A stretch of 64,000 nt of DNA from Neodothiora populina (GCF_041146345.1 NW_027191414.1:434001-498000); one strand, 5' to 3'. Shown: positions 4,676 to 63,955, numbered from the stretch's first letter. Notes: generated by a model not told the origin, from the sequence alone. Program-made: numbers and translations.

Positions 4676-5628
4676 ATGCCACCATCAACATCGTCAGTGA
4701 TGCATATTAACACCGAGGACCTCTCTCGAGATGTGTCACCCATGGCTTCTCCCACCTTGTCGATAGCGCACAGTCGGCACAGCGCTGTGTCCTCTGTGGA
4801 CGAGTCGCTCGATGCCTCACCAGTCTTTTCGACCTCTGGCCACCATCCCGACACAGTGAACACAGCATACTCAGACACTGCTACCGAACCATCTCTCCAA
4901 CACTCTTGCAATTACGATGCAGACGACTGGTTTGGCAAGTTTCGTGATGATGTTGACGTCTCTGACGATTGCCCTGATCGCGGCACGTTGGCAGCAGCAG
5001 GAGAGGTGATGCTCTACGATGCGTACGGGAATATGCGACCGTTCAGTACTTTCTTTACTGGACTAGATGCAATCGGCGACCGTCAGCTCATCATTTTCAT
5101 CCGCCATTTCTACTGCGGTGTAAGTTTCGGGAGATGTGATGCAGGATGAACTCTAATTGCTAATGCATTTGACATCAGGCTTGTCAAGCATATCTCCAGA
5201 AGATTGTAGAAGGCATTTCTATGCAAGCCTACTACACTATGCCCATTCCAACCTCTTTCGTGGTCGTTGGCTGCGGTAGTCCAGAGTTGATCCCACATTT
5301 CAAGTCTCAGACGAATTGTCCCTTCCCCATCTTCGCCGAACCTACGCGAAAAATCTATAGGGTATTGGGCATGTCCATGAGTGTCAACATCGGCATGAGA
5401 CGACCCGGATACATGAAGGGAATCAACGAGGGCGCCTGGGTCTTCGGACAGCTTCGCCAGATGGGACAAACCAAGGGTGCGAAAAAGTTTCGAGGAGGCA
5501 ACTGGCTTCAGATCGGTGGTGAATTTCTCTTTCAGGATGGTCAAGTCGTGTGGTGTCACAGGATGAGGAACTACCGCGACCACACCGAGGTTGCCCGGCT
5601 GAAACGAATACTCGAGATCGACGACTGA
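4676..5628 (+). CDS. AhpC/TSA-2 peroxiredoxin-like (AAED1/PRXL2C-type) protein
   Basis: FIRHFYCG|ACQAY (CxxC split by an intron near 5119-5179), VVVGCG, QIGGEFLF, WCHRMRNYRDHTEV; Ser-rich N-terminal extension. Confidence 0.85.
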
Positions 5629-6492
5629 GTTCTCCCGGCGTGATGGGAGTTTCAGAGATTTCTCGCCGCATGCTACTATGGACTTGCTGCTTCACTTCAC
5701 TTTGCTTCGGCACCACAACGATAATTCCATGCCCTGGAGCATGGCGCCATTTGCGCATCTTTATGCTGGACATTCTTTTTGAGTGGGAAGAGCTAGACGC
5801 GCAATGTATGTTTGAAACAGTCGGACTTGTGTGTATGACTCAGCCTCATCGGCCGGATCCCTCCTCTCACCGAGAACACTATTCTGCTCCGCCAGTTCCC
5901 ACAGTCTTCGGGGTCGACTCGACATACCTCATGACTGGTCACACCGACTTGGAAGACAGCACCAAGTGCACCAGTCCCCAGTATACACTAAGCGCCGCTC
6001 ATCCAGGAGCAGAATCTCAAGGGATCTACAAGGCTCAAGTGTTGACGCCTTGAGATGTGCCATTTCATACTCTTCACCATTTTCTTTTGCCCTGGTTGTT
6101 GCTCGGTTGTGCCTTCTTGCATCGACCGCAGCTCTTCGGGAAGCAGATAACCGATTTTTCTGATTCTTACACTGGAAACGATCATGTCGCTTTTTTCTTT
6201 TCTTCTTCTTCTCTTCCTTCTTATGGACTCCTTGGTTCTGTATATAGACTACATTGACACCAAATTTAACGACTTCAAGACTAGAAAAGGCTGTGCTGTA
6301 AAAGCTGATGGAGGTTCTCGTTTCTTTTTCTCTCTCCGAAAGTCGTATGCTGTTGGCTTTGTCTCCTCGCGAGTATAAGTTGGAAGGAACAAAAGAATCA
6401 GGGGTATCATTGGTTCTTGTCATCGCTGTGGATGAAAGTTTCTAGAGAAAGAAGAAGAAATAGGGGGAAAGAGAAAAGCAAAAAGAAGAATG

Positions 6493-7710
6493 TCAACACT
6501 GGAAGGCGACGCCCTTCTTCCTGACCATATTCTTGCCTCCGCCCGCGAAGCCCGTCCCCTCGGTGGATATCTCAACCGTGCCAGGCTTGATCTTTTCCTT
6601 TTCTTTCTTCTGTTCCGACCCTCCCTCCTCCTTTTTGTCTTTTTTGGATCTGATCGTCACGTCAGCCTGGCAGACATAGCACCTCACGACGCCGACTTCC
6701 TGCGTCTCGTCGTGGGCGTCTGGCTCGCTGGGTTTCATGAATTTGGCAGCGCAGGGCTTGCAGACGACGTGGCCGCAGGGTTTGGCCAGGACGGCTTTTG
6801 TGGCGTTTGAGAGGGTCTTTTCGCAGGCGGGACAGCTGCCGCTGCTGCTGTTCTTGTCGTTGTTGTCTTCGGTGGATTTGTCTTTGTGGAAATGCACCGT
6901 GACCAGAGTCTTGAGGCCGAACTCGTGCGACGAGTCGGAGTCGCTGGCTGGACAGACGGGGCGGAGTTTGGTGGGTTTGATGTCGCGATCTTTGGTGAAG
7001 GGTGTGGCCGAGGGGATCCAGAATGACGGGACGGCGGTGTTCGCTCTGGCTTCTGCTTTCAGATCCACGGGCTGTTGGTCCCTGGCTTTGGCTTTTTTCT
7101 GTTCGTCCTTGCCGAGGCGCAGTAATTCGTCCTCGTCGATTTCATGTTTGCGCTTTGTGCCTCGTGTGGATTCTTCGACCAGGACTTTGCCGTCTTGTCG
7201 CCCGATGATCTTGCTTCGAGAGTCCGAGACTGCGCTGTCGGCGAATTTCCGCTCGAGTCCCATCTGCACGGCTTCAAAGTCCGCCACGGCTTGCACGTCT
7301 CGCTCGGCTTTGGCCAGTTCATCCTCGAGGGCATTCTCTTGTTTTCGTCGGACGGCGTCGCGCTCGGCGCGCTTGATTTCGTTCTTCTGGGCGACGAGGT
7401 TGTTCAGGGCGCATTCGCGGCAGAAGAGGTGGCAGGCGGTCTTGCTCGTGCTGCAGGCTACTGGATCGCGGCTGGGCAGTAGGCAGAGGTTGCACGATCC
7501 GAAGGGCAGGAAGGAGTCGCGCGTCAGTCGGGTCGATCTGCTGCCCCATGTGGATTTGAGTTCTTCTCGCTCGTGAGAGGTGAAGAAGGCCAGCGAGGTG
7601 TTGCGCTTGCCTGATGGGTGGGTATCAGTACATGAATCACAAGGAGCCCATGTGATGGAGGGATAGAGCATTTGTGTGGAGGGAAGAGGGAGATACTCAC
7701 TGTGCGACAT
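6493..7710 (-). CDS. NOSIP: NOSIP-like RING/U-box spliceosome-associated protein
   Basis: [14 protein letters not shown] start with intron ~7611-7700; [46 protein letters not shown]-terminal EGTGFAGGG. Confidence 0.9.
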
Positions 7711-8173
7711 TCTGGCACCTCGAATGATATACTAAAGACCAATTACTTTACAACAATGATGTTCATGGAATGGTGACAGATGGAGATGATACAGAGGAAG
7801 GTACATGGATGCCAAGCATTTGCACAAATAAGTTAGGCAGGTATGAATGGAACTAAGGATGACATGCGGCGACGTCATGCTCTGATTCGCTGGGAAATCG
7901 GGAATCGCCAATCGTGAGTCGTGAATCGTGAATCGTGAATGGTCAAAGTCGAGAATATTTGGCCTCTTTGCCTCGCCTTATTCCTTCCTTTTTTCATATT
8001 CTCGCTCTTCTCTGTGTGAAGCACCGTATGCGCTCTTGATTCATCTGCCTTCACACTCCAATCTGCGGCTTCCTATCACTGTTTAGTCACTGGCTTCGGA
8101 TCCGGAAAACATTACATGTATACGACCTTGACCCTCCGGCTGCGATAGCATGAGCGAAAAAAACAAGACCACC

Positions 8174-9448
8174 ATGGCATCGTCGCTGCTCCCTCTCCCT
8201 GATCGACCGTCTCTTGGCTTCAGGATCGCATCGACCTTCCAGATGGGCTGGGTGGGCACGGCGTGTCGCTCTTTTCTCCTGGCATTCAACAGACTCGAGG
8301 TCAATGGATGGGACGGCTTCAAGAAGTTGCTGGATGAGAGGGAGGATGTCGCCGCCAGACAGAGAGGCTTGATTACTGTTTCTAACCACACGAGCGTGTA
8401 CGTACGTATACAATTACCTTGTTCTTGTCCTGTCACAAGTGGGAATGCTTTGCGCCGAGGAGAAACCTGTACTGAGTGATTGCATAGCCTTGATGATCCT
8501 GCGTTATGGGGCGCATTGCCTTATTCTTACCACTGGAACCCGGACAGTCTGCGCTGGAGTCTCGCAAGTCACGATCTGGCCTTTCAAAGCAGGTACGGAT
8601 TTATTGCGACCCGGAAACGCAATTTTTGATCTGACAGAGTTGGCAGGTTCACGTCTTTCTTCTTCACCATAGGGAACACACTCCCTTGCCATCGCGCAGC
8701 CCACTCGCCCTATGGCGGCCTCTTCCAGCCCACCATGACCCAAGCCATCCGCCTTCTATCCAACGGTCCCTTCGCCGCACCGCCTGTCGTCCCTAGCGAG
8801 ACCTCCCTGACCCGCGCCGATATCCCCGATCCTTTCTCGGATTCGCAGTTGACCTACAGCACCAACGGACAGGACAGCTTCCCTGCGCCATCAGCATATG
8901 CGAACCGTCGCTTCGCCTGGGTACATATCTTCCCGGAAGGCAAGGTTCATCAAAAGACAGACAAGACCATGCGCTACTTCAAGTGGGGTGTCTCGCGCTT
9001 GATCCTCGAAGCCGACACGGTCCCAGACTTGGTCCCCATCTGGATCGAGGGATTCGACTCGGTCATGCATGAGAGCAGGACATTCCCCAGGTTCATACCG
9101 CGGGGCAACAATGATGTCAGCGTGACATTTGGAGAAAAAGTGGACATGGAGGCCAGGTTCGGCGATCTAAGAAGCAAGTGGCAACAACTAAAAGCGAAGG
9201 TTCCGGCCAAAGCAGGACAACCAGACGAACTGGGCGTCATCAGGGATATCGACCTCATGACCGGACACGAGGCGGTCGAGTTGCGGAAAGAGTGCACGAT
9301 GAGGGTCAGAGAAGAAGTTCTAAAAGTGCGGAGAGGGAGAGGGCTGCCCGACGAAGACCCCAAGTGCGGCCTCGTCGAGACGTGGAGAGAGGAGGCAGGC
9401 GCACAACAGGGCCTGATGGGAGACGGGAGCTATGTCAAGGACATGTGA
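8174..9448 (+). CDS. TAZ1: Tafazzin (cardiolipin transacylase)
   Basis: RGLITVSNHTS|LDDPALWG, RWSLASHD, WVHIFPEGKVHQ, YFKWGVSRLILE; 2 introns; alternative start at 8150. Confidence 0.92.
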
Positions 9449-10459
9449 CGAGAAATGTTGGTGTAGAACGCGCTTTTGCTTACCGCCGAAGCATGTGGGA
9501 ACCTTGTACTACTATTACTACTCTTGTCGAGCCGTGCGGGCGAGAGCAACGAAAGAGACAAAGCACGTGTGTGAATAGCAAAAAGATAGAAATGACAAGA
9601 AAATGATTGATATACACGTCTAACCATCATCATCCAAGTATCTGCCAGGCAAGGTAAAGAAGTCGACAGTCACTGGGATATGACCGTTGGCTACGGGTCA
9701 GGGTTGAGTTTGATTTGTCCCGCACTTCGCAAAACGATCTGCCTTGAGCGCGTTGCGCTAGCGCAATGACGGAGGCCTAGCGCGTTCGAGGGCGTGCGCA
9801 TTCTTATAGAGGACCTGGGACCGACTCTCCGCGCCCGTCCATTTTCTTTCCCTAGCTGTGTATATCTGATCCTTACCGCGGAATCACCAGCACATTTCTT
9901 CTGATTTCTACCTGACCCTCGGGAGGAGGCGACGAACGATTGAGCTAAAAGCAAACGAACCAATTCACTTGTCGTTGAATCTGCAGCGGGAATCCACAAG
10001 TACAAGGATTGACAGAACAAGTACCATCTGGACTGACAAGCACACGGGCTTCCGTCATAGCGCCGTGGTCTGCATCTGCACTTGCACTTTTTATTTTTCA
10101 TTACATTATACACAATCCCCGTCCCTGTCATATCGATAAGGGAAGTGATACAGACTTTCTTTCTATATGTGTGAGAAGAAAACCAATAAACCCTTATCGG
10201 CTGTGCAATCCAAAACGAAACAAGGGAGCAGGGTCGAAGAGAGAGAAAAACGAAGATTTGCACAAGCAGCACAGCACTCTTGCACATATATAATCTAGTG
10301 CACCCCGCAGCTGCATTGCACATTGCACGAACCTCGACGCCTTTTTCTTCCTGACCGTGTGGACCGCCTTTTGGACCTTGTGGACAACCAATCGGAAGCC
10401 TTCCCCCAATAGATTGTTCTATCCAAAAGAAAAAGTGAATCCACACTAAAAGGAAGCAC

Positions 10460-10972: not shown

Positions 10973-11049
<77 letters not shown>

Positions 11050-11883
11050 CTACCAAGATCCGTATTCCTACCCCACTGCTCCGCAAGGGCAACAGCAATC
11101 ATACCCGCTTCACACTCCGGCCTACGGCTCTTTCTCCGATTCACATGCTCAGATGCCCCCGCAGACGCGTTCAAGCAACCGTGCCCAGCCTCGCTCATAC
11201 GCCGAACCCAATGACCCTCACGAATTCGACGCCTACCAGACCTATCCGTCAGTATTCGTAAAGGAAGAACAGCACTATCTGGAGTCACTTCCTCCCCAGG
11301 ACTTTGCTACCGCTCCTGCACCCACCCCTGCGCGTAGAGGCCGGAAACCAAAGCCGGAGAGCCAGGGGAACGGAGGTCGATTTGGCGCCATGGACGTCCA
11401 TCCCGTCGTCAAGAAGATGGACACTGGTGGTGTCGAGGTCAAGACCAAGTTTCCCACGGCCAGGATCAAGCGCATCATGCAGGCCGACGAGGACGTCGGC
11501 AAGGTAGCCCAGGTCACCCCCGTCGTCGTTGGTATGTATTTGGCTCTTTCACACATTGCAATACCATCATAACTAAGTCTTCTACAGCCAAAGCACTTGA
11601 GCTCTTCATGATCCGCCTCATCACATCTTCCGCCAACGCCGCAAAAGCTCGGGGCAGCAAGAAAGTCATGTCTCAGCACATGAAAATCGCAGTCATGCAG
11701 GACGACCAATTCGACAATTTACGAGAGATCATGACCAAGATCCCTGACGCGCCGACAAAGTCCTCCGCTGCCGCTGCAGCCAACGGCGACGACGATGACG
11801 ATGACGCCGGCGCCATCAAAGCCGAGGGCAAAGGAAAGGGTAAGGGAAGAGGCAAGAAGAGACGGGACAGCGACGACTATTGA
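10460..11883 (+). CDS. BUR6: NC2-alpha (Bur6/DRAP1) histone-fold repressor with long low-complexity N-terminus
   Basis: [38 protein letters not shown]; intron ~11532-11588. Confidence 0.9.
10925..11047 (+). repeat. (CCA)11 plus pure (CAG)24 coding microsatellites (polyP/polyQ)
   Basis: CCA run 10925-10957 and CAG run 10976-11047 read directly. Confidence 0.97.
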
Positions 11884-13424
11884 TGGAACAATGAGTCTGA
11901 GAAGATTTGCTTGTCTCCATCGCCTGATACCCATTCGCCTTGCTGTCAACTTTTGCACATGTCGCACGGCGTCGTCATTGCGAAAAATACCAGATGTGCT
12001 GCAAGCTTATGACTTGTGCAAGATACTGCGGTCCTGCTCGTCTGACATGCGCGCTATTATCATCTATGTGTCATTTCCGTTGCCGACCTGGCGGCGCACA
12101 CCTATCATCCTAGCTCTGGAGGAACAGAGTAGAGGGGCTAGTCCGGCCATAAGAAGACCTCCAGGCACGGCACATAGCGGCTGTCCCACCTTTCACGCGC
12201 CGAGATCGAAACAGAAATGGCTGCTCGTCATATATCACCAACGCCGTGGATCCTCTCGAGAAGGAAGAAAACATGGTGAACGCGACGAGCACAAAGAGAT
12301 ATCCACAGTTAGCGCGCCGGAGGGACCTACTTGGCATAAGATTCATCATCTGCCCCATCACGGGCGACCGGATCAAAAGGTGACCCCTCCAAACCAGGTC
12401 ATACACAGAACACAGATCAAGCGCAGAGCTCGCCGTATCGCTCTTCAGCAATTCTCCAACCACCATGCCTTGTGCGCATGAGAACAGAAGAATAAAGGAC
12501 GCCAAAGGCATGAAAAAGAAGAGACGATTGGCAGATACAGTACTAGCTAGCCACAGTATATACGGGACACTGTCCATGTAGTGGTGGCCCATTAAATCAC
12601 GAATCAATCCACTTCCTTCATCAGTCAATTCCCCTTCTTGTCGTGATGCTTACTATTCCTTCTACTCTTGTATATTCAGCAGCAGACCTCGGCTATGGAT
12701 GGCTGAGCATAAGAATGAAAGCAATAGATACACAGTACCGCGATGAACCCAAGATGATTGTAGGTGTCACGCGTTCGTTTGCACGACATACATGGACGAA
12801 TGGAAAACCGCATGGCTTATCTCCGTGTTGTTCCACTCTTGTTCTCTTCGTCCTTTTTCTTTTCACCTTTTCCCCTCGTCGTCCTTGCGACTGCCTCGCC
12901 GACTCGTCCTTTCTGACTGTACTGCTCCTCCCCCCTCCCGCTCTGCCTTCCTACTGTGTCTTCATACCGCATGCAAGTCCTGCTGCTCATAGATCTCGTA
13001 GATAGACAGTGACTCTTCAGCATTTCCATTTTAATTTCAGTAGGGTAATGTCCTCGCTCATCCTCAGCTAACAAAATCATTCGTGATACGTGTGTACTAT
13101 ACAGTCATTTGCCTTTTCGTGTCTAATCACAACTTTCGTCTCTTCGGAACCCCGTCTGTTCTTATTTCTATTTCAACTCCTTGCTCCTCTCGTTCTATCC
13201 CTCTTGTAGTACAATCCTTTGGCACCGTTGGAAATCAACCCACTGTCTTCATCTCTGTCTCTGAATTGAGAATGTAGTCCCGAGTGCAAGACCCAGCTGC
13301 CCCACCTGACACTTCTCATGGCTGCGCCGAAAGTGGTGGTAGCGAGAAGAGGTCTTACCAGCGTCGAAGTAGAGACACCAGGTCGTACGCTGTCGTTTTG
13401 ATACTGGTCAAAAAGTTCGCCGTT

Positions 13425-15005
13425 CTAGTTGATCTTCTTGGTGTTGCCGTTCGCGTCGGTGGTCGTGGTGCCGGGAGGGGTCATGGGGTGTTTGATGGTC
13501 AGACACCAGATATCCAGGTAATCACAGATGCTGACGATGACGTCTGCCACGAAGGATCCGTGGACGCCGATGCCTAGCCCTAGGCATGAGAACATGAATG
13601 CCACTTGGTATGTGTCGTTGCCGAGAACTGAAGGCCAGCCTAGGCCGATGGCTTCCTGGAGGTGAGGCCCGAGGCTGTCGAGGACGCCGAAGAGGAGAGG
13701 CAGGATGAGGACGTTCGTCATTGGGAAGCGAGACTTGGTCAGGTGGGCTGTAATCATTTGGCCCACGCTGTAGGCGTTCACGAGTCCGACGTAGAAGACG
13801 AAAGGCACGAGGTGGGAATGGAGGATGATTGGCTGGAGGTACAGGTATGCGGGGATAAGTGTCCAGGCCACGAAGAAGGGGAGGAGGCCGTAAAGAGCTG
13901 GAAGTGGACGCTCGCCGCGTTGGCGACGGGATGCCATGACGTTTAGTGCGCTTCGTAGAGTGTCAGCTTCTTCTTTTTGAGACCACATATCCTAACAGTA
14001 ATGATACGCCTAGCAAAAAAAAAAAGAACAATTGACATACCTCGAAACAGTGGCAAAGACAAGGACAAGCCCGCCGTAAACCATGTACCACTCTCCCCAA
14101 GACCATTCGTAAATAAAGTCTGGGATGAAGGAGTAGTGCTCCACGCCGACAGTAGCCAGGAAAGACTGTTGCCAGAAGCTACCTCCGCCCTTGACGGCGG
14201 TGAACGCAAACACGGCACACAATGTCAGAACGCCCTCTACCGGTCCAGAAATGACTCCAAGCGTCAAGGTGTGGGTGTGGTATTCGTCCCAAGTTTGGAC
14301 GTAGAATGTCAACAATGCTGTCGGTACGTTAGTCGACTGACATACTTCAATGCAGAACAAAACTTACATGCGAACAGGATGAGAATAGTCTTCCATCCTT
14401 GGCCGAAATTCATAGTGGCAGAGAAGAGAAGAACACCGAGAGATGTGTTCAGGGCATCGACACCATGGTCGAACAATTCGCCAAGGGGCCCACTCTGCTT
14501 TGTGCGGCGCCTGTAATCACAATTAGTCCAGGTCTTCAGCTGCTGTCACTTGGTTTACTTACGCTTGACTGCCGTCAACAGCATCGAACGTCTGGTACAA
14601 GAACATGCCAATCGCCCAACTTGCGTAGACCCAGGAAGGACAGTCTCGGTCCATACCAGGCGTGTAGTAGAGCATAGTCAAGACATTTGCAATGACGAAT
14701 CCGAATCCGCAAAGAGTGATCTGTAAAATATCGTCTCAGAATCCAGATGTTCACCGACATTAAGGTCTATTTGTAGAAATAATTGCTTACCAGGTTTGGA
14801 CTGCCAACACAAATTAGCTAATGTCCAGTCACAGAGAGTATACAGAATAGAAAGTCAAGACTTACGCCATCCACATGGGGAAGCATTCAATGACCACATT
14901 GTTGTAGAAAGGTTTCAAGATGTATTTGGAGACATAGCTGTGGTCAACACCAGAGTACTTGTATTCCTTCAGCTTGGGCAGCCTTTCCTGACGGATGTAG
15001 ACCAT
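13425..15005 (-). CDS. EPT1: Choline/ethanolamine phosphotransferase (CDP-alcohol phosphatidyltransferase)
   Basis: MVYIRQERLPKLKEYKYSGVDHS; DAVDGSQA|RRTKQSGPLGELFDHGVDALN motif; QTWDEYHTHTLTLG; several introns. Confidence 0.9.
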
Positions 15006-45977: not shown

Positions 45978-47218
45978 ATGATGTTGAACCAGATCTCCTA
46001 CTTGGATTGCCTAGCGTTCTTGGTCTTCCTAGCTCCTCAACTCTTGATCCATGTCGGACTTTATGAAGTCTTGAAGTGTGTGCTTCGAGCGTTGCCTTTC
46101 TTTGGTAAAACAAGTCCTGTTCAGTATGACTTCTCAGACAATTGTCAGCTCACTGTCTTTCTACAGTGATCAAGCTGCCTTTTCGTTTCGTCCGAGAGCG
46201 CTACTTTACTAGATATGAAGACAAAACTCCCTTTTGCCAGCATGCCTCCCCGTTCCAGGACTTCGTCATCCGCTGCGTGCGCTACGCCTTTGCGTACATC
46301 CCGGCTTCAATTGGCAAGGTTTTCTTCTCCAGGCCTGTCGCGTTGCCATTCCTGTACTGGCGCATGCTTCGTCACGGTGTTTCCAGGTCCCCGATCCCGT
46401 GGCAAGAGATCGATAGGCCAGGTCTCCAGGGCATTTGGATCTGCTGCGATGAGTCTCAACTGCCTGATGTTGTCGTTTATTATTGCCATGGCGGTGGCTT
46501 CTCAATGGGCTCCAGTTACTTCTACCTCGAGTTCTTGCTAGCCTGGGTGTCACTCCTCAAAGACGCTGGCTTCAAGAATCCTGCGCTTTTCGCACTCGAG
46601 TACACCCTTGTACCTGAAGCCACATATCCGCGACAGATTGATGAAACAATCTCTGGCTACGACTTTGTGCTTGCGCAGGCCGGCGGCTCGCCCGAGAAGA
46701 TCTGTCTGGGTGGCGACTCTGCTGGTGCAACATTGCAACTGAGCCTATTGCTTCACTTGTCCAAAGAATCCACCCCTAAATATCCATTGCCTGCTTTCGC
46801 CATCATCATCTCGCCCTGGGCTGTCATCATATCACCTAAGAATCAAGATACCCCTAGCGATTACTTGAATGCCGAAAGTCTGCACCTTTACGGAAGCCAG
46901 TATATCGGAACAAAGGCGTCAGCTGACGATCCTGTCGTCTCACCTGGCTCATGTAGAGACATCTCATGGTGGCAACGGGCTACACCTTCTCGAGGTTTCT
47001 TCTTCATCTATGGAGCCGAGGAGGTCTTTGCTCCGGAAACTGAAGATCTTGTAGGCTTCCTGAAGAAGACAGGGGCACAGGTTGGCGTTCACAGTGAGAA
47101 GGGCTGGATTCATGCCTGGCCTGTTGTGAAGCTTTTTCTCTGTGACGGTCAAGATGCTAGACAGAGTGGACTGAAAACGATGACCGCAGCGATTAGACAT
47201 AAGATCAAGTCGATATAG
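45978..47218 (+). CDS. Alpha/beta hydrolase, HSL-like (Say1/Mug180-type)
   Basis: HGGG, GDSAG nucleophile elbow, catalytic His in WIHAWP; N-terminal TM; intron ~46105-46166. Confidence 0.88.
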
Positions 47219-47713: not shown

Positions 47714-48841
47714 TCATAGCCAGACAGCAGTCGCCGCAGCTAAAGTCTTTCCCTCATCGTCGACCAATTGCGTTCGAGCAGCTTCATAAAGCTTCTTCCC
47801 GTCGAAACCGAGCACAAACACATAACCTTCAGCACTGTCCGTCAAGGCCATGTACTCAACATCGGGCTTCTCGACACTATCAGGCGCCGGTTCCACAGCG
47901 TTTGCAATGCCACCGCTTGTCGCGGTTTCGTAAATGTCAATCGCGTCGCCATCGATCAGTCCTTCTGCAGTTAGTCTGTAAGCTGCAACGTAACCTTTGC
48001 AGCTCTTCTCGAGGCCGCGAGTGGAAGCGTAGAGGTATCTTGGACTGCCCTTTACAGGTCTGCTTAGTCGGACTTCGTCGGCCCAGTAGTCTTTAGGGTC
48101 TTTGTCGGCGGGAATAATACTGGCGCCGCCAACGAGCTCAAGCGTGGTTCCATCTTCCGCCACGGAGAGAACGTCCACCATACTGCTGTGCTCCTGCAGA
48201 CTATACAGGTATTTGCCGTTGGGGTGCGGCCATGTGTGTCTCGGACCGTCGTTGCTTCGGCTGGCGATCCACTTCATGCCTAAAGTCAGAGGAGGCTTGC
48301 CAGTCGAGGCTGCGGAAACGTCTACACTGTATGACCAGACGCAGTTGTGGCCAATGTCTGCAATGTACAGACTCTTTCCATCCGGCGAAAAGTCTACGGA
48401 ATGCGAGCCATGCCTTAAGCCTCCGAAATCACCGTGAGCCACCTCCCCTGTCTTTCCATCATCCTTGCCCGACCCTTCTCGGAAGTTCAATTCCTGTACC
48501 AATTCACCTAGGCTGCCGTCTGCATTTATAGCAAAGACTTCGCCGGTAGGTCCGCCTGCTGTGTAGAGATGTGTGTCTGACGCCACAACGTAGCCGCTCA
48601 TTGCCTTGATTGGCTTGGAGTTCATAAAAGTCGCCGATCGATCATCATTGATCTTGTATGATGCAACTTTAGCAGGATCTGCCCAAACAGTGGTATACAG
48701 AAATTTGTGATCTTTTGAAAGAGCTAGCCAAGAGTGGCCGCCACACGCCTCTGATCGCTTCACAATTTCTAAGGAAGATGGCGCATTGAATCGAAGTGTG
48801 AATAAAGCGGGAGAGTAGAACGTGCCGACAAGAAAATCCAT
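47714..48841 (-). CDS. 7-bladed beta-propeller lactonase / muconate-cycloisomerase-like protein (no signal peptide)
   Basis: FLVGTF, HGSHSVDFSPDGKSLYIADIG, DGPRHTWPHPNGKYLY, YWADEVRLS, LYASTRG, AATAVWL. Confidence 0.85.
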   Translation of the reverse strand: MDFLVGTFYSPALFTLRFNAPSSLEIVKRSEACGGHSWLALSKDHKFLYTTVWADPAKVASYKINDDRSATFMNSKPIKAMSGYVVASDTHLYTAGGPTGEVFAINADGSLGELVQELNFREGSGKDDGKTGEVAHGDFGGLRHGSHSVDFSPDGKSLYIADIGHNCVWSYSVDVSAASTGKPPLTLGMKWIASRSNDGPRHTWPHPNGKYLYSLQEHSSMVDVLSVAEDGTTLELVGGASIIPADKDPKDYWADEVRLSRPVKGSPRYLYASTRGLEKSCKGYVAAYRLTAEGLIDGDAIDIYETATSGGIANAVEPAPDSVEKPDVEYMALTDSAEGYVFVLGFDGKKLYEAARTQLVDDEGKTLAAATAVWL

Positions 48842-49282
48842 TGTAGAGGCCGAATCAAATTGTTTCAGGAGTGACTTTTTCTGCTTCAAAGGACTTGGTA
48901 CAACAAATTACTTTCTTAGGATACAAGTTCACAAAACGCAGGAACCAGCTACTTCTTACTTGAAGAGAGGCATCGGGTCTCGCATCAATGGATATCGGAA
49001 GATGCACTTCTTAATATTTATCCGAAGCTGGCCAGGCGTCGGACCGGGGGACACGTGTGGTTCGCGACCCGTAAACCGTATCAGGCAATATCATAACCCT
49101 AACGTGCCTGAATGCCGACTCCGACCATGCCGATCATGTGGGCGGGGATGGTTGGGCAATAAACATGATAGGTAATCTATTCTGAAGGGGATACCTCTCG
49201 TTTTTAAATAATCAAGTGCTGTTCACAGCAAAGCGAGGTGGGCAGACCCGCGCTCATAATTTTATGCGAGCAGCGCTCGATC

Positions 49283-51285
49283 ATGGTTGAAGATACAGCT
49301 CTGCCAGCACTGACGCCTGCCTCGTCTGCCGGGTCACCGGACACCGTGACGAGACCCAAACGCAAGGCGAATACTGCTACGAATCGTGCAAAGCAACAGA
49401 AACGGCCTCGCATCGAAGGACCGAGACCGACTGCTATAGATCCAGAGCCAGAGGTACAGACAGAGATACCCGAGATTGGCGAAATCGATAAGCAGTCAAC
49501 CCCCGGAACACCATCGGTGCAACCGCTCGCGCATCAAACACCCCGCAGCCCCCGCCCCTCAGGAGTGACATGTAACTTTATCGACAATCAATTTACACCC
49601 TCGAAAACTCGTAGCTGGATACCTGTCCACGACCCAGTAGGCTTGGCCTCGTCATATACACGATCTGCTCGCTGACATAGAAAGGCAACCCAACAACTCA
49701 TAACCCGCGTGCCTGAATCAACACTCACTGACGTGCATAATGCGGTCAATAGTGCTGAAGCAGCACAGAAGAAGTGGCGGCGAGTACCATTGACAAAAAG
49801 AAGAAAACCCCTTCTTCGCTTGATAGAGCTTATGCGTAACAATGAAATGAGTCTCGTGAGTTATCGCTGTCTAGAAGATGTTCGGATCTTTTCTGATGTG
49901 CTTTTGCAATCCATGCAGGTCAATGCCATTGTCAGAGATGTAGGAAAAACTGCCGACGATGCGATCTCTGAGATATCACGATCAGTGAACATGGTCGAAG
50001 CTGCTCTGTCGTGTACAAGTGTGCTACTCGGATACCACTTCGATAACGAAGCTACTGAAACTCATACCATTGACGAGCCTCTGGGTGTTTGTATGGCTGT
50101 CACACCTTTCAATTTCCCTCTGATGGTGCCGATGTGGCTGATACCTTTCGCCATCACGACGGGTAACACCATCATCTTGAAGCCATCTGAGCAGGCGCCA
50201 AGCGTCATCACTGTCCTAGGTGAGCTCTTCCAACAAGCGGAATTTCCTGAGGGTGTCTTCAGCATCATCCATGGCGGTCCGGCAGCAGTAGATAAATTGC
50301 TTGCTGAGCCCGCCATCAAAGCTGTTTCTTTCGTCGGTTCCGACGCTGCAGGACAACACATCCACAGCACCGCTATCGCGGCACGGAAACGAGTCCAAGC
50401 AAATTGTGGAGTGAAAAACCATGGCGTTGTTATGCCTGATGCCAACAAGCGCCAGACATTATTTGCTCTGGCTGCTAGTTGCTTTGGAGCTGCTGGACAA
50501 CGATGTATGGGCGTAAGCGTGGCGGTCTTCGTGGGCGAAAGCAATGAATGGCTCTCAGAACTTGTCGAGATCGCCGCGCAATTCAAAGTGGGCACCGCTT
50601 CCCAGCAGGGTATTGCATTGGGCCCTCTCATCAGTCGCGCATCCAAGCAAAAGGTCGAACAAATGATACAAGGTGCTATAAAAGACGGTGCCAGGGTTCT
50701 TCTCGACGGAAGAGGTGTACAAGTGCCCGACTTTCCAGACGGCAACTTTATAGGACCGACGATCATTACTGACGTTCAAACGTACATGGAATGCTATCAG
50801 AAGGAGATTTTGGGCCCGGTACTTGTCTGTATGCAAGCTGAGAGTCTTGAGGAAGCCATCGAGTTGGTCAATGATAACCCATGTGAGTCTCATATTTCAG
50901 CTCACATGTGTGGCAATCGACTCATTGGCACACAGATGGTAACGGATGTTCAATATTCACGTCTAGTGCAAAGAAAGCACAGATGTTTCAACGTGAAGTC
51001 AACATAGGACGCATAGGCATTAATGTGCCGCTCATTGGTATGATTATCTTTTTATACCTTTGCCCGCTATCCATGACAAACTGACACTTTTCGCAGCAAC
51101 GTCTGGACAAATATCTAACAGCAGCAACAAAGATAGTTTCTTGGGAGGTAAGATTCTGTATTTTTAACTGTGATGCTTGATTTAGTCGTAAGTTGACCTT
51201 TTGCATAGATATCAACGTCCATGGCTTCAGAGGTCATCAATTCTTCACCACCACCAAGACTATTTCATCCATATGGAAAGATTGA
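49283..51285 (+). CDS. Malonate/methylmalonate-semialdehyde dehydrogenase (ALDH6-type, CoA-acylating), diverged paralog
   Basis: EPLGV..TPFNFP, LKPSE, SFVGS, VQANCGVKNH (lacks the general-base Glu, as in MMSDH), catalytic FGAAGQRCM, EILGPV; about 5 introns; TGA 51283-51285. Confidence 0.88.
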
Positions 51286-51390
51286 TCTTATATCAATCAT
51301 TTTCCTTTGCTGAACCTCAAAGGCTAGGGTATACAACTGATCCAGCAATTGACCGCCCCTGTTGTGGCGAATTCGAGCATCTCCATCAAT

Positions 51391-52065
51391 CTATGAGCCG
51401 GTTCCGTAGAGTCTGTCACCGATGTCGCCAATGCCAGGAGTAATGTAGCCCTTAGCATCAACACCCTCATCGAGGTGACCAACGATCAACTCGAGGCCCT
51501 CGGGCCATGAGTCTGCAACTGCCTTTGCGCCTTGCGGACTAGCGAGGATAGAGAGGAAGGTGATGTGCTTTGCTCCCCATTGTCTGCCGGATGTTAGTGG
51601 AACTCGTCTGGTTTAACGATGTGCAAATACTCGAACGTACCTAAGGATATCAATGGTTGCGGTGGCGGTGCCTCCGGTGGCAATCAGGGGATCTACGACG
51701 AACACTCTGTCGACTGGTGCGCCCTGGCTCGGTAGCTTGTTGTAGTACTCCACAGGCTCGAGTGTCTTCTTCTCGCGGTAGAGACCGAGATGGTACACGA
51801 CGACGTCAATGTCTGGTGATAGAGTGGCGAGGAAAGGCTCGCACATGGGAAGACCAGCGCGAAGGACAATGATCAGAGCGATCTTGGGTGTGCTGTGGGG
51901 GAGAGATCTCGTGGCCTCAATGGAGATGATCTGAGACAGCTCGTTTGTAAGAGTTCGCACTACTGAAGGACGAAGCGATCTATCCCGAAGAAGGTCGAGT
52001 TTGGCTTCGATGGCTGGATGGTCGAGGACCGTGACATTGGAGGCAGATTTTAGTGCGGAAGGCAT
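51391..52065 (-). CDS. Uracil phosphoribosyltransferase (urg2/URC6-like)
   Basis: VLRAGL, HLGLYREKKTLEPVEYYNKLP, DPLIATGGT PRPP motif, GYITPGIGDIGDRLYGT; 1 intron. Confidence 0.93.
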
Positions 52066-52300
52066 TGTGATTGATGTGACGACTTGAATGGAGCAAGAGG
52101 TTTCGAGGCGAAGGTCAAAAGCGATGGATATTATAGTAAAGGAGCTGATGTTGTAGAAAAGTGATGTGCTGTATGAGAAGAGAAGACCATAGATATATAG
52201 CAATTACAAGACTGTTATGAGCTCCACGATATGTTCCATTCATCAGTACAGACATTGCTGATTTTACTCCACTATACTGGCACTCAGCAGTGGTAGTCGC

Positions 52301-52513
52301 TGATAGTCGTGGATAAGCGAGCGTCAACTTTAACCGGGGCTGCGATAGAGTCGAGCGAGCCAGAGATAAGCCTATAATCACAGATAAGAGCGCGGAGATG
52401 CTGCCCTGATAGCTTCGGGTCCCGCCATGAGGTCCTAATCTGATAGCAACTGACATGAACATAATTAGATAGTATTATAACAGAAGATTTACAATTCAGT
52501 CGTAATCGATAAG
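52301..52513. promoter_or_regulatory. GATA-site array in UPRT/URC4 divergent promoter (putative AreA/NIT2 control)
   Basis: Nine GATAR sites on the + strand at ~52301, 52311, 52343, 52364, 52382, 52407, 52441, 52467 and 52507. Confidence 0.75.
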
Positions 52514-52716
52514 TTTCAGATTATTCTGAGAAGTTTGACTTGGATGTGTTAGGGTGTAGCAGATCGCTTTGCGAAAGCACAATAACTCGTTACCCTGCAT
52601 TAACTCTTGATTATCCTCCATCTCACCTTTCGTTGTTCTTCTTTCCCTCTTTTCCTTTCCTTCTTCTTTGTTTGAGCACAATACTTGCAAAGTATCTGTC
52701 ACAGTCACGTATCACT

Positions 52717-54171
52717 ATGTCTTCCGCATACGAAACACTTTCTTCCCTCCCCGCTATCCGTGAGCGGGCAACGGAAGTCTATAAGATCGCGAAAGCAGGA
52801 GAAGCAAGCAATTTTGACCTGCACGAAGATCGTCTCGATGCCACTGTCGATCTGGTCATCAAAGTGATACTGGTCGGTCGAGACCATGAATTGTTCAAAA
52901 CCCATTTGTTCTAATAAGATATCTCAGGGTTCTTTCCCAGTAGACAAGTTCAGCACCATCCCTCCTCATGGTCGCTGGCAGCACTTTGAAACAGGTGATG
53001 TGCCTCGCTTGACCAAAGTGCTGGACCAATGGGAGAGCGGAGGTGTCGATTCCACAGAGCGTTGCAGACGACTCATGGATCTGTTCCTTGTTTCTGTCTT
53101 GCTCGATGCTGGAGCGGGTGATAATTGGAAGTACAAGGAGGCTTCCACAGGCACGGCTGTTGAGCGTAGTGAGGGTCTTGCTGTGGCTTCCTTGTATATG
53201 TTCCTTGATGGGTCATTTGGCGGTGGCAAGGCGGGCTTGGTCAACGGTAAGTCACCTTAGGGTATCATAGTCGTTACAGAAGTCACTAATGTCTGTTGTA
53301 GGTGAGGGATTGAAAAGCCTAACCTCAGAAACGCTTGCGGCAGGTATGCAGGCGAGCGAGGCGAATCCTTTGACGGGCGTTGAGGGAAGGACCTCGTTGC
53401 TGCAGAGTCTTGGAAGCTCACTACTTTCCCAACCCGATATCTTTGGTGCTGAGGGAAGACCAGGAAAGATAGTAGGCAAGTAATTACTCCTAACGCTGGT
53501 CTAGTATCTGAGATTTTCTAACATGTCATGCTCTAGACTATCTGCTGAACTCGAATAAGGGCTCACAATTGGATGTGGCAACGTTATGGGCAGCTCTACA
53601 GCAATTATTGTTACCTATCTGGCCAACGGACCGAACCAAGGTTGAAGGCAAGGCCATCGGGGATGCTTGGCCTCTCAGCACGTTGAAGAAGGTCGCCAAA
53701 GATGATGATCCCTCATCCCTCATCCAGCCCTTCCACAAACTCACTCAATGGCTCACTTACTCGCTTATGGTGCCATTTGTGCGACTACTCAACCTCGAAT
53801 GGACAAACAGCCAGCTACTCACAGGTCTACCAGAATACCGAAATGGTGGTCTATTCGTTGACATGGGTGTGTTGACCCTGAAGCAAGACGTCCTGGCTCG
53901 CGGAGTCGAGAAGTCTGGAGAGCGATTGCCAATGTTCGAACCTGCTGAAGATGTCATTGTTGAATGGAGAGCGCTTACAGTTGCGCTCTTGGACATTGTG
54001 CACGTGGAAGTCAACAAGAAGCTACGCGCGATGGGGGCGACTGCTGATCTATCTCTTGCTCAAGTATTGGAGGCAGGGACGTGGAAGGCAGGTCGTGTGT
54101 TAGCTGCAGAGAAGCGACCAGAAACTCGATCAAGTCCTATTCTTATCATTAGTGATGGCACTCTATTTTAG
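52717..54171 (+). CDS. URC4: DUF1688 uracil catabolism protein (URC4/urg3)
   Basis: IPPHGRWQHF, DLFLVSVLLDAGAG, ERSEGLAVASL, QPFHKLTQWLTYSL, TGLPEYRNGGLF, LAQVLEAGTWKAGR, SDGTLF; 3 introns. Confidence 0.93.
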
Positions 54172-55023
54172 ATAGCTACTTGAACAAAAGTAATGTCGAT
54201 ATTGAGCAATATACATTCCCAACATCGTCCTTGACGTTTCTTCCTAGTTGCAGTATATGTGAGATACTTGATCTAATCATCTTAACATTTGGCATATTTT
54301 ATGTTGTCTTGCATATACTAGCATAAAGATTGCATAGTTATGCATCAATCACAATACCTACTCCGACTTTTCCAAAGGCTAGACTAACCACGGCAACATT
54401 GGTATGAAAACAATCATCCTTGAGAGCTTTGCACCTGTATGTCACTGTTTCCCAAGAAATGATGAGTATTTGTCGACCAAGCTGTCGAGATCAAGAGCAG
54501 CACAGGAAAGGTGTTTGTTATCTCTGTATAGTCGAGCCCTAGATTGCAGCAAAGATAAGCCGAGATAGTATCACCAGCCAATCACAACGCAGTATCTCCT
54601 GCCTGCCAGATGCTTATCTGCACTCAAGATATGGCTCCCCTGCTGGCGACTTTACTATCGATACTGGAGTGGTCTTGTGGTTTCTCGGCCCACTCGAGTC
54701 TCGACTTAGCAATCGCACCAAGGGCACAGTCAGTGCCTGTATGTGATTATCGTCCATACGCCACGATACAGGCCATGAACGTTGTAGGCGGCGTCCGGTG
54801 CCGCATTGCCTATTGTCCAACTCCACTCGTGATAGTGATACGAAGGTAGGATGGCTTCTAGATATAAGTATAGAGTCGAGCACCCGTGTTGTAGTCCATC
54901 ATCGCATCCGTCATTCGTATTTCATACATCTGTATTCGACTCTTTTGCGTTTAGCAAGTGTGACTACTTTCCATAGATCTTTTCGACCACGAGATCATTT
55001 CGTTCTCCATCATATCCAGCATC

Positions 55024-56576
55024 ATGAAGCCAACTACTGAAGAGGAAGTCAAGCCTGAGGTTGTGGGAACAGACAAGGCAGATATCATTCCCCCTACCTC
55101 GCTCGCAAAACGTTATGGAAGCCGCATCATCCTCACCACATACCCTGGCCAAAGTGGCGTGGAGCCCACATCACTCATTTGGGGAGCTGAAGACCCTCAG
55201 AAGCGTGGTCCAGTCATCGTTTCCCGCGCAGGCCAGACGATGAAGTACCGCAATGCCATTGGCGCTCACGGCGGTAGCTACAGTATATACAATGCCCTCG
55301 CCATTGCAGGTGGAGACTTGGACATGGACTTCCGACCCAACTTTTTCAACACCGAGCCGACCTTCAAATTCAAGCCCAACAAGGCATGGGCCGACCCTAG
55401 TGCAATTGTGAGCATGGATCCTTACGGTCACGAAGTCGCGTCGTTGTACACGGGATACATTGAGAAAGGCCTGGATGTGCGACCAACGATAGCCATCACG
55501 AGAGCCAGCATGCGCGTTGCGGAGATCGCCGAAGCAGTCAAGAACGGAGTCCTTCCTGTTGATGGCGAAATCGTCATGACACAAGAGGGCGATGTGCGAG
55601 TCACCAAAGTCGCCGTCGAGCCTGTGTGGCATCTCCCTGGAGTGGCCAAGCGTTTCAACATCGACGAGGGAAAACTCCGTCGTGCCCTTTTCGAACACAC
55701 CGGTGGCATGTACCCTGAGCTCATCACACGACCGGATCTCGAGGTTTTCTTGCCGCCTATTGGTGGATTGACGGTCTACATCTTCGGTCCTCCCGAGAAG
55801 GTCTCAGATCCCAATGTGAAGCTCGCATGTCGTGTCCACGACGAGTGCAACGGCAGTGACGTGTTCCAATCTGATATTTGCACATGTAGACCCTACCTCG
55901 CCTTTGGTATCCAGGAGGCAATTAGAGAAGCACAGAACGGCGGCAGTGGTATCTGCATCTACTTCAGAAAGGAAGGTCGTGCGCTCGGCGAGGTCGTCAA
56001 GTACCTTGTGTACAATTCGCGCAAGCGCGGTGGTGATACTGCAGACAAGTACTTTGCGCGAACAGAGAACATCGCCGGTGTGAGAGACGTAAGTTCAGAC
56101 CTCGAAATTCATCAAAGTCAAATCTTTTAAGACAACCGCTGACATTTTCACAGATGCGTTTCCAAGAACTCATGCCTGACATCCTTCACTGGCTCGGCGT
56201 CACCAAGATCGACCGCATGTTGTCAATGTCAAACATGAAGCACGACGCAATCGTTGGTTCTGGTATCCCCATCCTCGAGCGGATACCTATCCCCGATGGT
56301 AAGTCTCTCCCCCTGCATGGGATTCCACAACAAGACCACATAGACACATAAGTCTGACATTCGCGACCACAGAGATGATTCCCGAAGACTCCCGTGTCGA
56401 GATCGACGCCAAGATCAACGCCGGCTACTTCACGACAGGAAAGGCATACACGGACGCCGAACTCAAGCAAGTCAAGGGTAGAGGCTGGGAGAAGTGGGAG
56501 GATGTCGCTGTAAGCAATCCACCGAACATGATGACGCTACTTGGCAATGCAATACTGACTCATTTCCCAGCACTGA
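55024..56576 (+). CDS. URC1: GTP cyclohydrolase II-like uracil catabolism protein (URC1/urg1)
   Basis: RIILTTYPGQ, RGPVIVSR, RNAIGAHGGSYSIY, RVHDECNGSDVFQSDICTCRPYL, KEGRALGEVVKYLVYN, DMRFQELMPD; 3 introns, last exon CACTGA. Confidence 0.95.
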
Positions 56577-61816: not shown

Positions 61817-62592
61817 ACGACCCATAGATGAAGATAAAGCTACAACACGTGCGTCTGCCGCTGAGTGAGTTAAGATTCTCGCCTTCGGCTTCACGTCGCT
61901 CCCGGCTTCATGCTCGGCGGCTTGGTGGCTTGGATGCTTCATGTGTAAAGCATGCGTGAACGCCTTCTCGGTCCTATTCTATATAGTATCCGTATTAGAA
62001 ATCAATAACTAACTTAGCAGAGTTTATACAGTACTCCGTATATGCCACAAAGTTATATAGGATATGAATTAATAATCTCACCGATGTTGACAAACCAGGA
62101 TCTTTCATTTTGCTGGCTCTTGCGACTAGTGCCAGAAGATATAAGGTCTGCGAGGTCGGTCGGCTGCCACTTCCCCGAAGATTCCATCTCCACAGTTCCG
62201 CTACCACGAGTTTCATCTACTTCCGCATCAAGATTGCGGGGATCTGCAGCAGCCACATTACATGCGTACACTGCCAAGGCCACCAATACATTGACGAAAT
62301 GACGATCGCGCATGATATCTGTCGAGATGCACGAAGCCTTAGCACATAGCCTCGAACCGATCTTACCAAGGCAGATCAGTCGGCATGTTGTTGCATTCGC
62401 TCTGCACCCCGCTCTGATGTAGTCGCATCGGGCCGTATGCAATGCGCCTGTAATGTGTATATAAAGGTATGCTGGACTCGCATGTCTTGTCAAAGGTGAC
62501 TGTGACCCTCATTTGTTAATCCCTCGAAGGCGTGTCTTGTTCCCTCGGATATCGAGACTATCTCGAGTACACACAGACCTATGCATTACAGC

Positions 62593-63955
62593 ATGTTCTC
62601 CCCTATCGTACAGCTTTGCGCTGTCGCAGGTCTAGCCTCGGCGACCAACCTTTTCGTCTCATCCTATGACGGTAACATCACCACACTGTCTTTGACCGAG
62701 ACAAATGGATCATATAACCTTGGGAAAACATACTCCAATGATGGCTGTGCGCCGAATCCTTCTTGGCTTACTCTAGACTATGGTCATGGCGTTCTGTACT
62801 GCTTGGATGAGGGTCTAACCACCGTAAATGGCACCTTGAGCTCTTTCACCATTGGCGCCAACGGTGAATTAGATCTTGTGGAGAAGAAAGACACCATCAA
62901 CGGACCCGTCAGTGGAATCGTTTATGGCAATCCTGCCACAGGCAAGAGAGCGATTGCCCTGGCTCATTAGTACGTGATCTTGCCCTTGTATCGTACCCCT
63001 CTTGCATGGATGTCTGACAGAATATACAGCGTTGGAAGTGCCGTGAGTAGCTGGACTCTGAGTCCCTCGAGCAACGGAAACTTCACTTTCAACGAAGCAT
63101 TCACGTACGAGCTGGACCAACCTGGTCCAAATGCCCAGCGTCAGGATGCACCTCACGAGCACGAGGCAGTGGTCGACCCAACAGGGCAATTCATCCTGGT
63201 TCCTGATCTCGGCGCTGATGTTGTCCGTGTCTTCTCTATCGACCCAGACACCCTCAAGCTCACGCCCGAATCGCCACTCGAGGTCACACCAGGATCTGGT
63301 CCTCGCCACATTGCTTTCTACAACCCTCACAGCACCGTGTGCAAGACTTGCACGAGCTACATGTTCCTTGTCACCGAGCTCACCAACCGCGTCATCAGCT
63401 ATCGTCTGAGCTACCCTGCTGCTGGCGGCATGTCGTTCACCGAGGCTTTTAACATCAGCACCTTTGGTGACAACGCTGTTCCCGTTAACAACACTGCTGC
63501 CGAGATTGAGGTTTCTGTAAGTCTTTCCCACGTGTATCCTCGGTATCCTGCCTTGGCACTATATTCACCTCGCAGAAGAAGTGACGATAGACTACTGACT
63601 CACTCTTCAGCCCGACAACCGCTTCCTCATCGTCTCAAACCGAAACAACACCATCTTCAACCTGCCCAACCCAGACTACCCAACAAACAAGACCGAGATC
63701 CCCTCGGACGCCATCTCGACCTACCAGATCAACAAGGCCGATGGCTCCCTGACTCACACTCAGCTCTGGCCCGCCGGCGGCTTCTTTCCTCGTTCTTTCA
63801 GCATTAGCAAGGCCGGAGACTTGGTTGCTGTTGGCTTGCAGTACAGTAGCGAGGTCGTCATCTTGAGTCGTGATGTCGCTAGTGGCAATTTGGGAAGGCC
63901 GGTTGCGGCTATAGCGATTGATGGACAGGTCACTTCTGTTGTGTGGAATGAGTAG
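62593..63955 (+). CDS. Secreted 6-phosphogluconolactonase-like beta-propeller (YkgB-type)
   Basis: Signal peptide, NPSWL, RQDAPHEHEAVVDPTG, VPDLGADVVR, GSGPRH, PDNRFLIVSNR, FPRSF; 2 introns; TAG 63955. Confidence 0.88.

Follow-up and report, generated by a model that had tools for sequence, protein, structure and literature searches.

The uracil catabolism (URC) pathway is the least understood route of pyrimidine degradation, and the fate of the three-carbon part of uracil is known from one yeast, Lachancea (Saccharomyces) kluyveri. The yeast URC genes are not known to form one tight cluster, and the 3-hydroxypropionate of the yeast pathway is reportedly made by the reductase URC8. In the available portions of two accounts of the L. 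kluyveri system (URC1, URC4 and URC6, with URC8, URC3,5 and URC2), a cyclohydrolase, a DUF1688 protein and a uracil phosphoribosyltransferase (UPRT) take uracil to urea and a three-carbon acid (PMC7530994, PMC3869809), the yeast products being urea and 3-hydroxypropionate (PMC7530994). The urg genes of Schizosaccharomyces pombe are orthologues of URC1 and URC4 (PMC3869809, in part), and urg1, urg2 and urg3 are strongly uracil-induced neighbours that code for proteins of the GTP-cyclohydrolase-II-like, UPRT and DUF1688 families respectively (PMC2174524, in part). Here we describe a locus of the fungus Neodothiora populina (Dothideales, Dothioraceae), analysed within a 64-kb stretch of DNA that we call the window, in which the same three families lie beside a paralogue of methylmalonate-semialdehyde dehydrogenase (MMSDH) and a gene for a propeller protein. 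We put the probability that this is a four-gene URC cluster, composed of UPRT, URC4, URC1 and the MMSDH paralogue with an unrelated fifth gene next to it, at roughly two in three. The cluster would then be of a known kind, enlarged by a fourth member that is conserved and apparently undescribed; a search of the open literature, with key URC papers lying outside it, found no account of MMSDH genes within fungal URC clusters.

The five genes occupy positions 47714 to 56576 of the window, which is fungal DNA of about 50% G+C with short spliceosomal introns. An earlier note on this stretch, made from the sequence, had read them as lactonase (minus strand), MMSDH (plus), UPRT (minus), URC4 (plus) and URC1 (plus). 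A Pfam domain search of the window's stop-to-stop open reading frames (ORFs) of at least 110 amino acids (aa; 143 ORFs), together with gene models, finds all five in that place and orientation, and the outer coordinates that the note had given fall exactly on both outer stop codons. The MMSDH paralogue lies at 49283-51285 on the plus strand in six exons (49283-49636, 49685-49855, 49919-50882, 50936-51037, 51097-51147 and 51209-51285; 572 aa), with the Pfam Aldedh domain on 49676-51007 (9e-98), and its model is letter for letter protein P0002 (NCBI: Neodothiora populina, AAFC00_005794). It converges on the UPRT gene, with 105 bp between the stop codons. UPRT, in the role of URC6/urg2, is encoded at 51391-52065 on the minus strand in two exons (52065-51641 and 51583-51391; 205 aa) and matches Pfam UPRTase PF14681 on 51613-52203(-) at 2.2e-27 and, on the first-exon ORF, the NCBIfam upp model at 1.7e-25. 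On the opposite strand, across 651 bp, URC4 follows at 52717-54171(+) with exons at 52717-52872, 52928-53246, 53302-53475 and 53537-54171 (427 aa), DUF1688 (PF07958) being found on all three large exon ORFs within 52513-54171(+), down to 9e-87. Its third intron (53476-53536) has a GC-AG boundary with a GCAAGT donor, the GT-AG combinations tried in the tested ranges having broken the frame. A further 852 bp separates URC4 from URC1 at 55024-56576(+) (exons 55024-56088, 56154-56298, 56373-56509 and 56571-56576; 450 aa), which matches Pfam GTP_CH_N on 54964-56130(+) at 3e-87 as well as GTP_cyclohydro2, and whose model is letter for letter protein P0362 (NCBI: Neodothiora populina, AAFC00_005797). 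The UPRT and URC4 models were built here, guided by intron-less (L019 for UPRT) or bacterial relatives.

By family assignment URC1, URC4 and UPRT are the genuine, known URC core, as the earlier note had held. Its statement that the window has no URC8-type reductase, urea amidolyase or URC2-type regulator also stands over the range searched: Pfam finds no Zn2Cys6 domain, adh_short reductase or urea amidolyase domain among the 143 ORFs, and the sole match in a six-frame scan of the window for the Zn2Cys6 cysteine pattern is a poly-C artefact. The locus thereby differs from that of L. kluyveri, having the MMSDH paralogue instead. It differs also from the S. pombe urg cluster, which in the available portion of its description (PMC2174524) has three genes, no aldehyde dehydrogenase and a Fur1-like urg2, whereas the window UPRT scores on bacterial upp models.

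The case for a fourth member begins with its linkage to URC1 in other fungi. Taking same-assembly accession or locus-tag numbers as a proxy for position, we find that in 20 of 21 species the paralogue stands one to six gene numbers away from URC1, and the linked species span four classes (Dothideomycetes, Xylonomycetes, Eurotiomycetes and Sordariomycetes). A distance of exactly three, which like the window has two intervening genes, is shared by 11 species: Neodothiora (AAFC00_005794/005797), Delphinella (KAF1344912/915), Xylona (KZF23827/830), Hypoxylon cercidicola, H. crocopeplum, Fonsecaea monophora, F. pedrosoi, F. nubica, Cladophialophora yegresii, Pyrenochaeta sp. and Exophiala viscosa. 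The distance is one in Penicillium hispanicum and Aspergillus wentii, two in Dothideomycetes sp. NU459 and Microdochium trichocladiopsis, and four to six in Hypoxylon rubiginosum, H. texense, Stylonectria, A. heteromorphus and A. cavernicola. Two merged gene models give physical confirmation, as read from their sequences, of adjacency in other species, P0366 of NU459 joining URC4 to URC1 and P0049 of Thyridium curvatum joining a Fur1-like UPRTase to the Aldedh paralogue. The UPRT part of P0049 is only distantly similar to the upp-like UPRT of the window (35% over 52 aa), and there are therefore two UPRT types beside URC-linked dehydrogenases. In a further model, P0036 of Pyrenochaeta sp., residues 5-58 are the C-terminal end of a domain associated with phosphoribosyl pyrophosphate (PRPP) synthetase, joined to a full MMSDH paralogue; a gene for PRPP synthetase, the maker of the UPRT co-substrate, probably lies directly upstream of the paralogue in this species.

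The paralogue is recognisably akin to canonical mitochondrial MMSDH/ALDH6A1 and to the fungal Ald6-type malonate-semialdehyde dehydrogenases, and yet it forms a group of its own. P0002 passes TIGR01722 with 534 bits against a cut-off of 448.5, lower than the 683 bits of the canonical Exophiala dermatitidis MMSDH, and the best solved relative of the window enzyme is the ALDH6A1-type MMSDH/MSDH 9IZU (1e-100). Among the listed homologues the closest is that of Neodothiora, whose 94% falls short of full identity because the query contained an in-frame intron; after it come those of Delphinella (75%), Exophiala viscosa (67%) and Xylona (63%). A band near 50% identity follows with Aspergillus, Penicillium, Fonsecaea, Hypoxylon and others, and the canonical fungal, plant and animal MMSDHs stand at 44-48%. 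In a tree of 62 of the 120 listed homologues (the 58 omitted were mostly unnamed fragments or near-duplicates), made by a quick LG+G4 search without bootstrap, 39 rows form a Pezizomycotina paralogue clade with a value of 100 in the Shimodaira-Hasegawa-like approximate likelihood-ratio test (SH-aLRT) and a stem of 0.77 changes per site. All 17 rows marked at that stage as URC-linked fall in this clade, and the 11 canonical ascomycete rows all fall outside it, making up the neighbouring clade (SH-aLRT 94). Both types occur in the genus Exophiala, E. viscosa falling in the paralogue clade and E. dermatitidis and E. aquamarina among the canonical enzymes.

The residues expected of a working enzyme are retained. 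The catalytic Cys is kept in 32 of 32 paralogues, and the preceding Arg, the second Arg and the Asn in 31 of 32 each; the window enzyme carries the catalytic motifs GQRCM, ISRS and KNHG. The two Arg reportedly bind the substrate carboxylate. A single alignment column separates the groups at 90% or more, with Glu in paralogues and Asp in canonical enzymes at P0002 position 193. A second difference lies at the N terminus, where the window enzyme has an acidic/basic extension of about 100 aa (49283-49600) in the place of the mitochondrial presequence of canonical MMSDH; its first 60 residues include seven acidic ones and a KRK...KRPR cluster and do not have the character of a presequence. Over the first 60 positions the median number of acidic residues is 8 in 23 paralogues versus 2 in 13 canonical proteins, the canonical fungal N termini being basic and acid-poor (0-4 acidic residues, except in two models that are apparently N-terminally truncated). 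The extension is low in complexity, rich in Pro and Ser and acidic in most full-length paralogues (P0003, P0008, P0018, P0026 and others), is missing from the model P0058, and carries in about half of the 23 a K/R cluster (KRK...KRPR, PRKRARQ, NKRRRSD) that resembles a nuclear localisation signal; some extensions show R-R-x-S sites. Judged by N-terminal composition alone, the paralogue is probably located outside mitochondria, because most full-length members of the clade have no mitochondrial presequence. Four features set the paralogue apart from canonical MMSDH: its clade, its extended N terminus, the Glu/Asp switch at position 193 and its place in a URC cluster. The first three of these offer an annotation marker by which URC-linked enzymes may be distinguished from housekeeping ones.

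URC1 scores 639.8 bits against NCBIfam NF005536 (cut-off 403), and its first exon matches the solved bacterial enzyme in PDB 7EEV/7EJ3 at 1e-112, including the cysteine-rich HDECNGSDVF..SDICTCRPYL stretch. The structure paper of this bacterial enzyme names it in its title a 'UTP cyclohydrolase', and it reportedly turns UTP into ribosylurea phosphate and malonate semialdehyde. The URC4 model contains a single stop and shares 54% identity with the URC4 portion of P0366 over 399 aa. Its fold was predicted for the intron-less fungal relative L019, 53-57% identical to the window URC4 exons, from an alignment of 23 sequences (predicted local distance difference test 93.9), and the only significant fold matches of this confident model are with DUF2419/Qng1, the queuine-salvage proteins: 10 chains with E from 4e-9 to 1e-7 and TM scores, normalised to the target, of 0.72-0.80, the next listed match having E 0.38. 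Since Qng1 is a queuosine-5'-monophosphate N-glycosidase, the predicted fold supports an N-glycosidic, urea-releasing step for URC4, although identity is 15-17%, URC4 is about 100 residues longer and its substrate would be ribosylurea phosphate. The arrangement of the core also recurs. A metagenome scan with a URC4 exon gave 56 loci, 15 of them longer than 7 kb, whose content by tblastn includes UPRT in 9 and URC1 in 5, and the divergent pair UPRT(-)<>URC4(+) is present in L009/L011, L010, L017, L018 and L019. At 6407-6844(-) of L009, 1.3 kb past the cluster UPRT, there is a second UPRTase-like ORF fragment, possibly another exon or a duplicate.

A route for uracil carbon that would fit these observations starts with UPRT, which by its family would join uracil to PRPP to give UMP. 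Housekeeping kinases, for which the cluster holds no gene, would then make UTP, and URC1 would open and cleave the uracil ring to yield ribosylurea phosphate and malonate semialdehyde, as reported for its bacterial relative. URC4, given its predicted fold, would release urea and ribose phosphate. The MMSDH paralogue, acting beside the other URC enzymes and in place of the L. kluyveri reductase URC8, would use CoA and NAD+ to oxidise and decarboxylate malonate semialdehyde, giving acetyl-CoA and CO2. The fungus would thereby assimilate the three-carbon part of uracil and rid itself of a reactive aldehyde. Extending this beyond N. populina, we consider it somewhat better than an even bet that in many filamentous ascomycetes a non-mitochondrial malonate-semialdehyde dehydrogenase, duplicated from the mitochondrial enzyme of the valine pathway, has become a fixed fourth URC member, that uracil carbon there goes to acetyl-CoA and is not excreted as 3-hydroxypropionate, and that predatory bacteria have converged on the same solution with mmsA. 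The cluster-embedded paralogue would be a concrete, testable answer to the question of the three-carbon fate in filamentous fungi. In Aspergillus a fungal MMSDH homologue degrades malonate semialdehyde, and deletion of one such homologue raised the yield of 3-hydroxypropionate (PMC8058442, the available portion of which does not mention uracil); the paralogue would be a second sink for malonate semialdehyde and may matter for 3-hydroxypropionate-producing Aspergillus strains.

Bacteria have an operon of the same three core families, URC1 (UrcA), DUF1688 and upp. Scanning genomes with a URC1 alignment, by way of just two peptide patterns, gave 21 bacterial loci, among which fractions are no population estimate; all 21 have URC4 after URC1 and 19 have upp, the URC1 proteins being 55-59% identical to that of the window. 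In one of these loci, L074, from an Oligoflexales metagenome-assembled genome, an mmsA-type gene stands at the head of the operon and ends 32 nt before URC1-URC4-upp, with a TIGR01722 score of 444 bits, just below the cut-off of 448.5. The fungal genes differ from the bacterial operon in being separately transcribed, intron-bearing and of mixed orientation, and in that the dehydrogenase is a eukaryotic paralogue. Because it lies beside the canonical ascomycete MMSDHs in the tree, its recruitment looks independent of the bacterial mmsA. Downstream in L074, about 1 kb after upp and with one ORF (11035-12057) between, is a Rid-family gene at 12058-12471 (TIGR00004 169 bits, RutC 77 bits).

The intergenic regions offer a candidate regulatory element. 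The 12-mer ATAGAGTCGAGC occurs exactly twice in the 64-kb window, both times on the plus strand within a URC intergenic region: at 52345-52356 between UPRT and URC4, and at 54870-54881, where it precedes the start codon of URC1 by about 150 bp. A copy with two mismatches is found at 54526-54537, also between URC4 and URC1, and the core TA(G/T)AGTCGAGC is present three times across both URC promoters. A 12-mer shared by regions of 651 and 852 bp would be expected about 0.07 times by chance. The element is in none of the 77 fetched loci (56 metagenome and 21 bacterial), no 8-mer is common to all three intergenic regions of the locus, and no pattern of CGG/CCG pairs is common to the three. We regard ATAGAGTCGAGC as a weak candidate for a shared cis element, one that speaks neither for nor against co-regulation of the cluster.

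Several observations weigh against the reading of a four-gene URC cluster with an unrelated neighbour. The adjacency in other fungi was read from numbering and not from DNA, the species pairs were largely picked for matching source-record sizes, which makes for ascertainment bias, and A. terreus, A. karnatakaensis, P. macrosclerotiorum and P. atrosanguineum, with unmatched source records, lie outside the 21-species count. The one unlinked species within that count, Paecilomyces variotii DTO271G3, has paralogue and URC1 287 numbers apart. An Aldedh relative was found by tblastn in none of the 56 metagenome URC4 loci, only 15 of which exceed 7 kb, and an MMSDH-like gene in only one of the 21 bacterial loci. 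Two metagenome loci, L009/L011, show the window order UPRT(-)<>URC4(+)>URC1(+) with 8 kb of flank free of a dehydrogenase; the L009 URC1 is 91% identical to that of Paecilomyces. In L018 the core genes URC1, UPRT and URC4 precede an MFS transporter and a Zn2Cys6 factor, with no dehydrogenase on that side; the URC1 of this locus shares 97% identity with an Aureobasidium protein, and only about 0.8 kb extends past URC1, so that a gene beyond it would not be visible. The 12-mer ATAGAGTCGAGC is absent from the intergenic region between the propeller gene and MMSDH at up to two mismatches. The paralogue stands on a long branch, which makes a change of substrate possible. Finally, the propeller gene adjoins the cluster at opposite ends in two genera, which can be read as retention.

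Since the full-core loci L009/L011 and L018 show no dehydrogenase, the MMSDH extension is, by gene content, frequent but lineage-dependent, even within the Dothideales. The contigs of close relatives (L001, L033, L048 and L049, with URC4 71-85% identical) are too short to show neighbours. The transporter and factor of L018, at 5169-9734, are of the MFS sugar type and of the Zn2Cys6/fungal_trans_2 type, which makes them a candidate permease linked to URC and a candidate regulator resembling URC2. Farther along the contig, at 13348-14190, is a short-chain dehydrogenase.

The most serious alternative, which we hold to be unlikely, is that the linkage of MMSDH to URC1 is no more than inherited gene order, with the enzyme serving the catabolism of beta-alanine, 3-hydroxypropionate, valine or thymine-derived methylmalonate semialdehyde and the URC pathway ending in 3-hydroxypropionate. 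MMSDH-family enzymes do serve several pathways (PMC8058442, in part), some lineages have the core without MMSDH, Paecilomyces keeps its paralogue away from URC1, and the promoter 12-mer is not shared with MMSDH. What such a reading accommodates poorly is the linkage itself, which, kept at spacings of 1-6 across four classes, has lasted long for neutral synteny within the Pezizomycotina, and the independent bacterial operon that joins mmsA to the same three genes. Furthermore, malonate semialdehyde, the product attributed to URC1, is the textbook substrate of MMSDH, and the two Arg residues that reportedly hold the substrate carboxylate are kept in the paralogue.

The fifth gene, called a lactonase in the earlier note, is a single exon at 47714-48841 on the minus strand that encodes a seven-bladed propeller of 375 aa, with Pfam PF10282 on 47714-48907 (1.7e-31). 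Its best solved relative is the 3-carboxy-cis,cis-muconate lactonizing enzyme (CMLE) of Neurospora crassa, 1JOF, with which it aligns over its full length (residues 4-360 against 6-353, 2.9e-16) and shares H148, R196 and E212, which we take to be active-site (catalytic or binding) residues. Sequence identity to 1JOF is low, and the names in the source records favour muconate cycloisomerase over the carboxy form: among 475 homologues at E of at most 1e-10, the named ones are 'muconate cycloisomerase 1' or 'carboxy-cis,cis-muconate cyclase'. Assignment as a 6-phosphogluconolactonase was rejected (NF008258 59.2 bits against a cut-off of 370, NF050136 42.6 against 500). The orthologue group is large and diverges smoothly, from Delphinella (85%) and NU459 (75%) through Aureobasidium (about 65%) to Elsinoe, Diaporthe, Cytospora and Mycosphaerellales (55-62%). 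The protein is thus nearest to fungal muconate or carboxymuconate cycloisomerases and not, as the earlier label had it, to a hydrolase; it is most likely such a cycloisomerase of aromatic catabolism that shares local synteny only.

Of the two enzymes with which the earlier note had extended the URC cluster, the synteny comparison that it proposed bears out one. The semialdehyde dehydrogenase shows recurrent linkage, near URC1 in 20 of 21 species; the propeller gene adjoins the cluster in two of the four lineages checked, the window and Delphinella, both Dothioraceae. Because its orthologue group is widespread and it is unlinked in NU459 and Aureobasidium, we judge the propeller gene, from these comparisons, to be a neighbour and not a member of the URC pathway. 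In NU459 it is g2374, on another contig than the g0624-g0626 cluster, and in Aureobasidium melanogenum CBS 110374 it is KEQ66284, 170 numbers from URC1 (KEQ66114), the source records of the two differing in size. In Delphinella the propeller gene (KAF1344916) comes next after URC1 (KAF1344915), which is the other end of the cluster from its place in the window; both layouts would follow if the four-gene block had inverted once while its flanks were conserved. That one of the two extra enzymes appears to be a bystander marks a limit of inferring function from a single locus.

It is quite improbable, in our estimation, that all five genes cooperate, with the propeller enzyme performing an extra step on a ureidoacrylate-type ring-opened intermediate or a ribose-derived lactone. 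The gene does share a divergent intergenic region of 441 bp with MMSDH, and its presence at the other end of the Delphinella cluster may mean that it has been retained nearby through a rearrangement. The two genera are of the same family, however, and a single block inversion would account for their layouts; the gene is unlinked in the two other lineages, its relatives were found by tblastn in none of the 56 metagenome loci and in none of the 21 bacterial ones, its orthologue group is broad and named for cycloisomerases, and no known URC step calls for a propeller enzyme. Least credible of all is that the extension is an artefact of annotation or numbering and the paralogue the organism's only MMSDH, for although the analysis of N. 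populina covers the 64-kb window only, the genus Exophiala carries both types, the window itself shows physical adjacency and the merged models P0049 and P0366 show it elsewhere.

Around the four-gene cluster the window holds unrelated housekeeping genes, among them those for a protein O-mannosyltransferase, PRP21, a WD40 protein and DNA polymerase lambda. A second PF10282 gene, in three exon ORFs at 62506-63952(+), lies about 6 kb past URC1; its nearest relatives are bacterial proteins of gluconolactonase or 6-phosphogluconolactonase-like type. The two PF10282 genes of the window were considered as a tandem pair and rejected as such, BLASTP between them reaching only E 0.015 over 28 residues. 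On the other side, at 46130-47218(+), a gene for an Abhydrolase_3/Say1-type esterase is convergent with the propeller gene; if the propeller protein is a muconate cycloisomerase, this esterase could, as pure speculation, be its lactone-hydrolysing partner.

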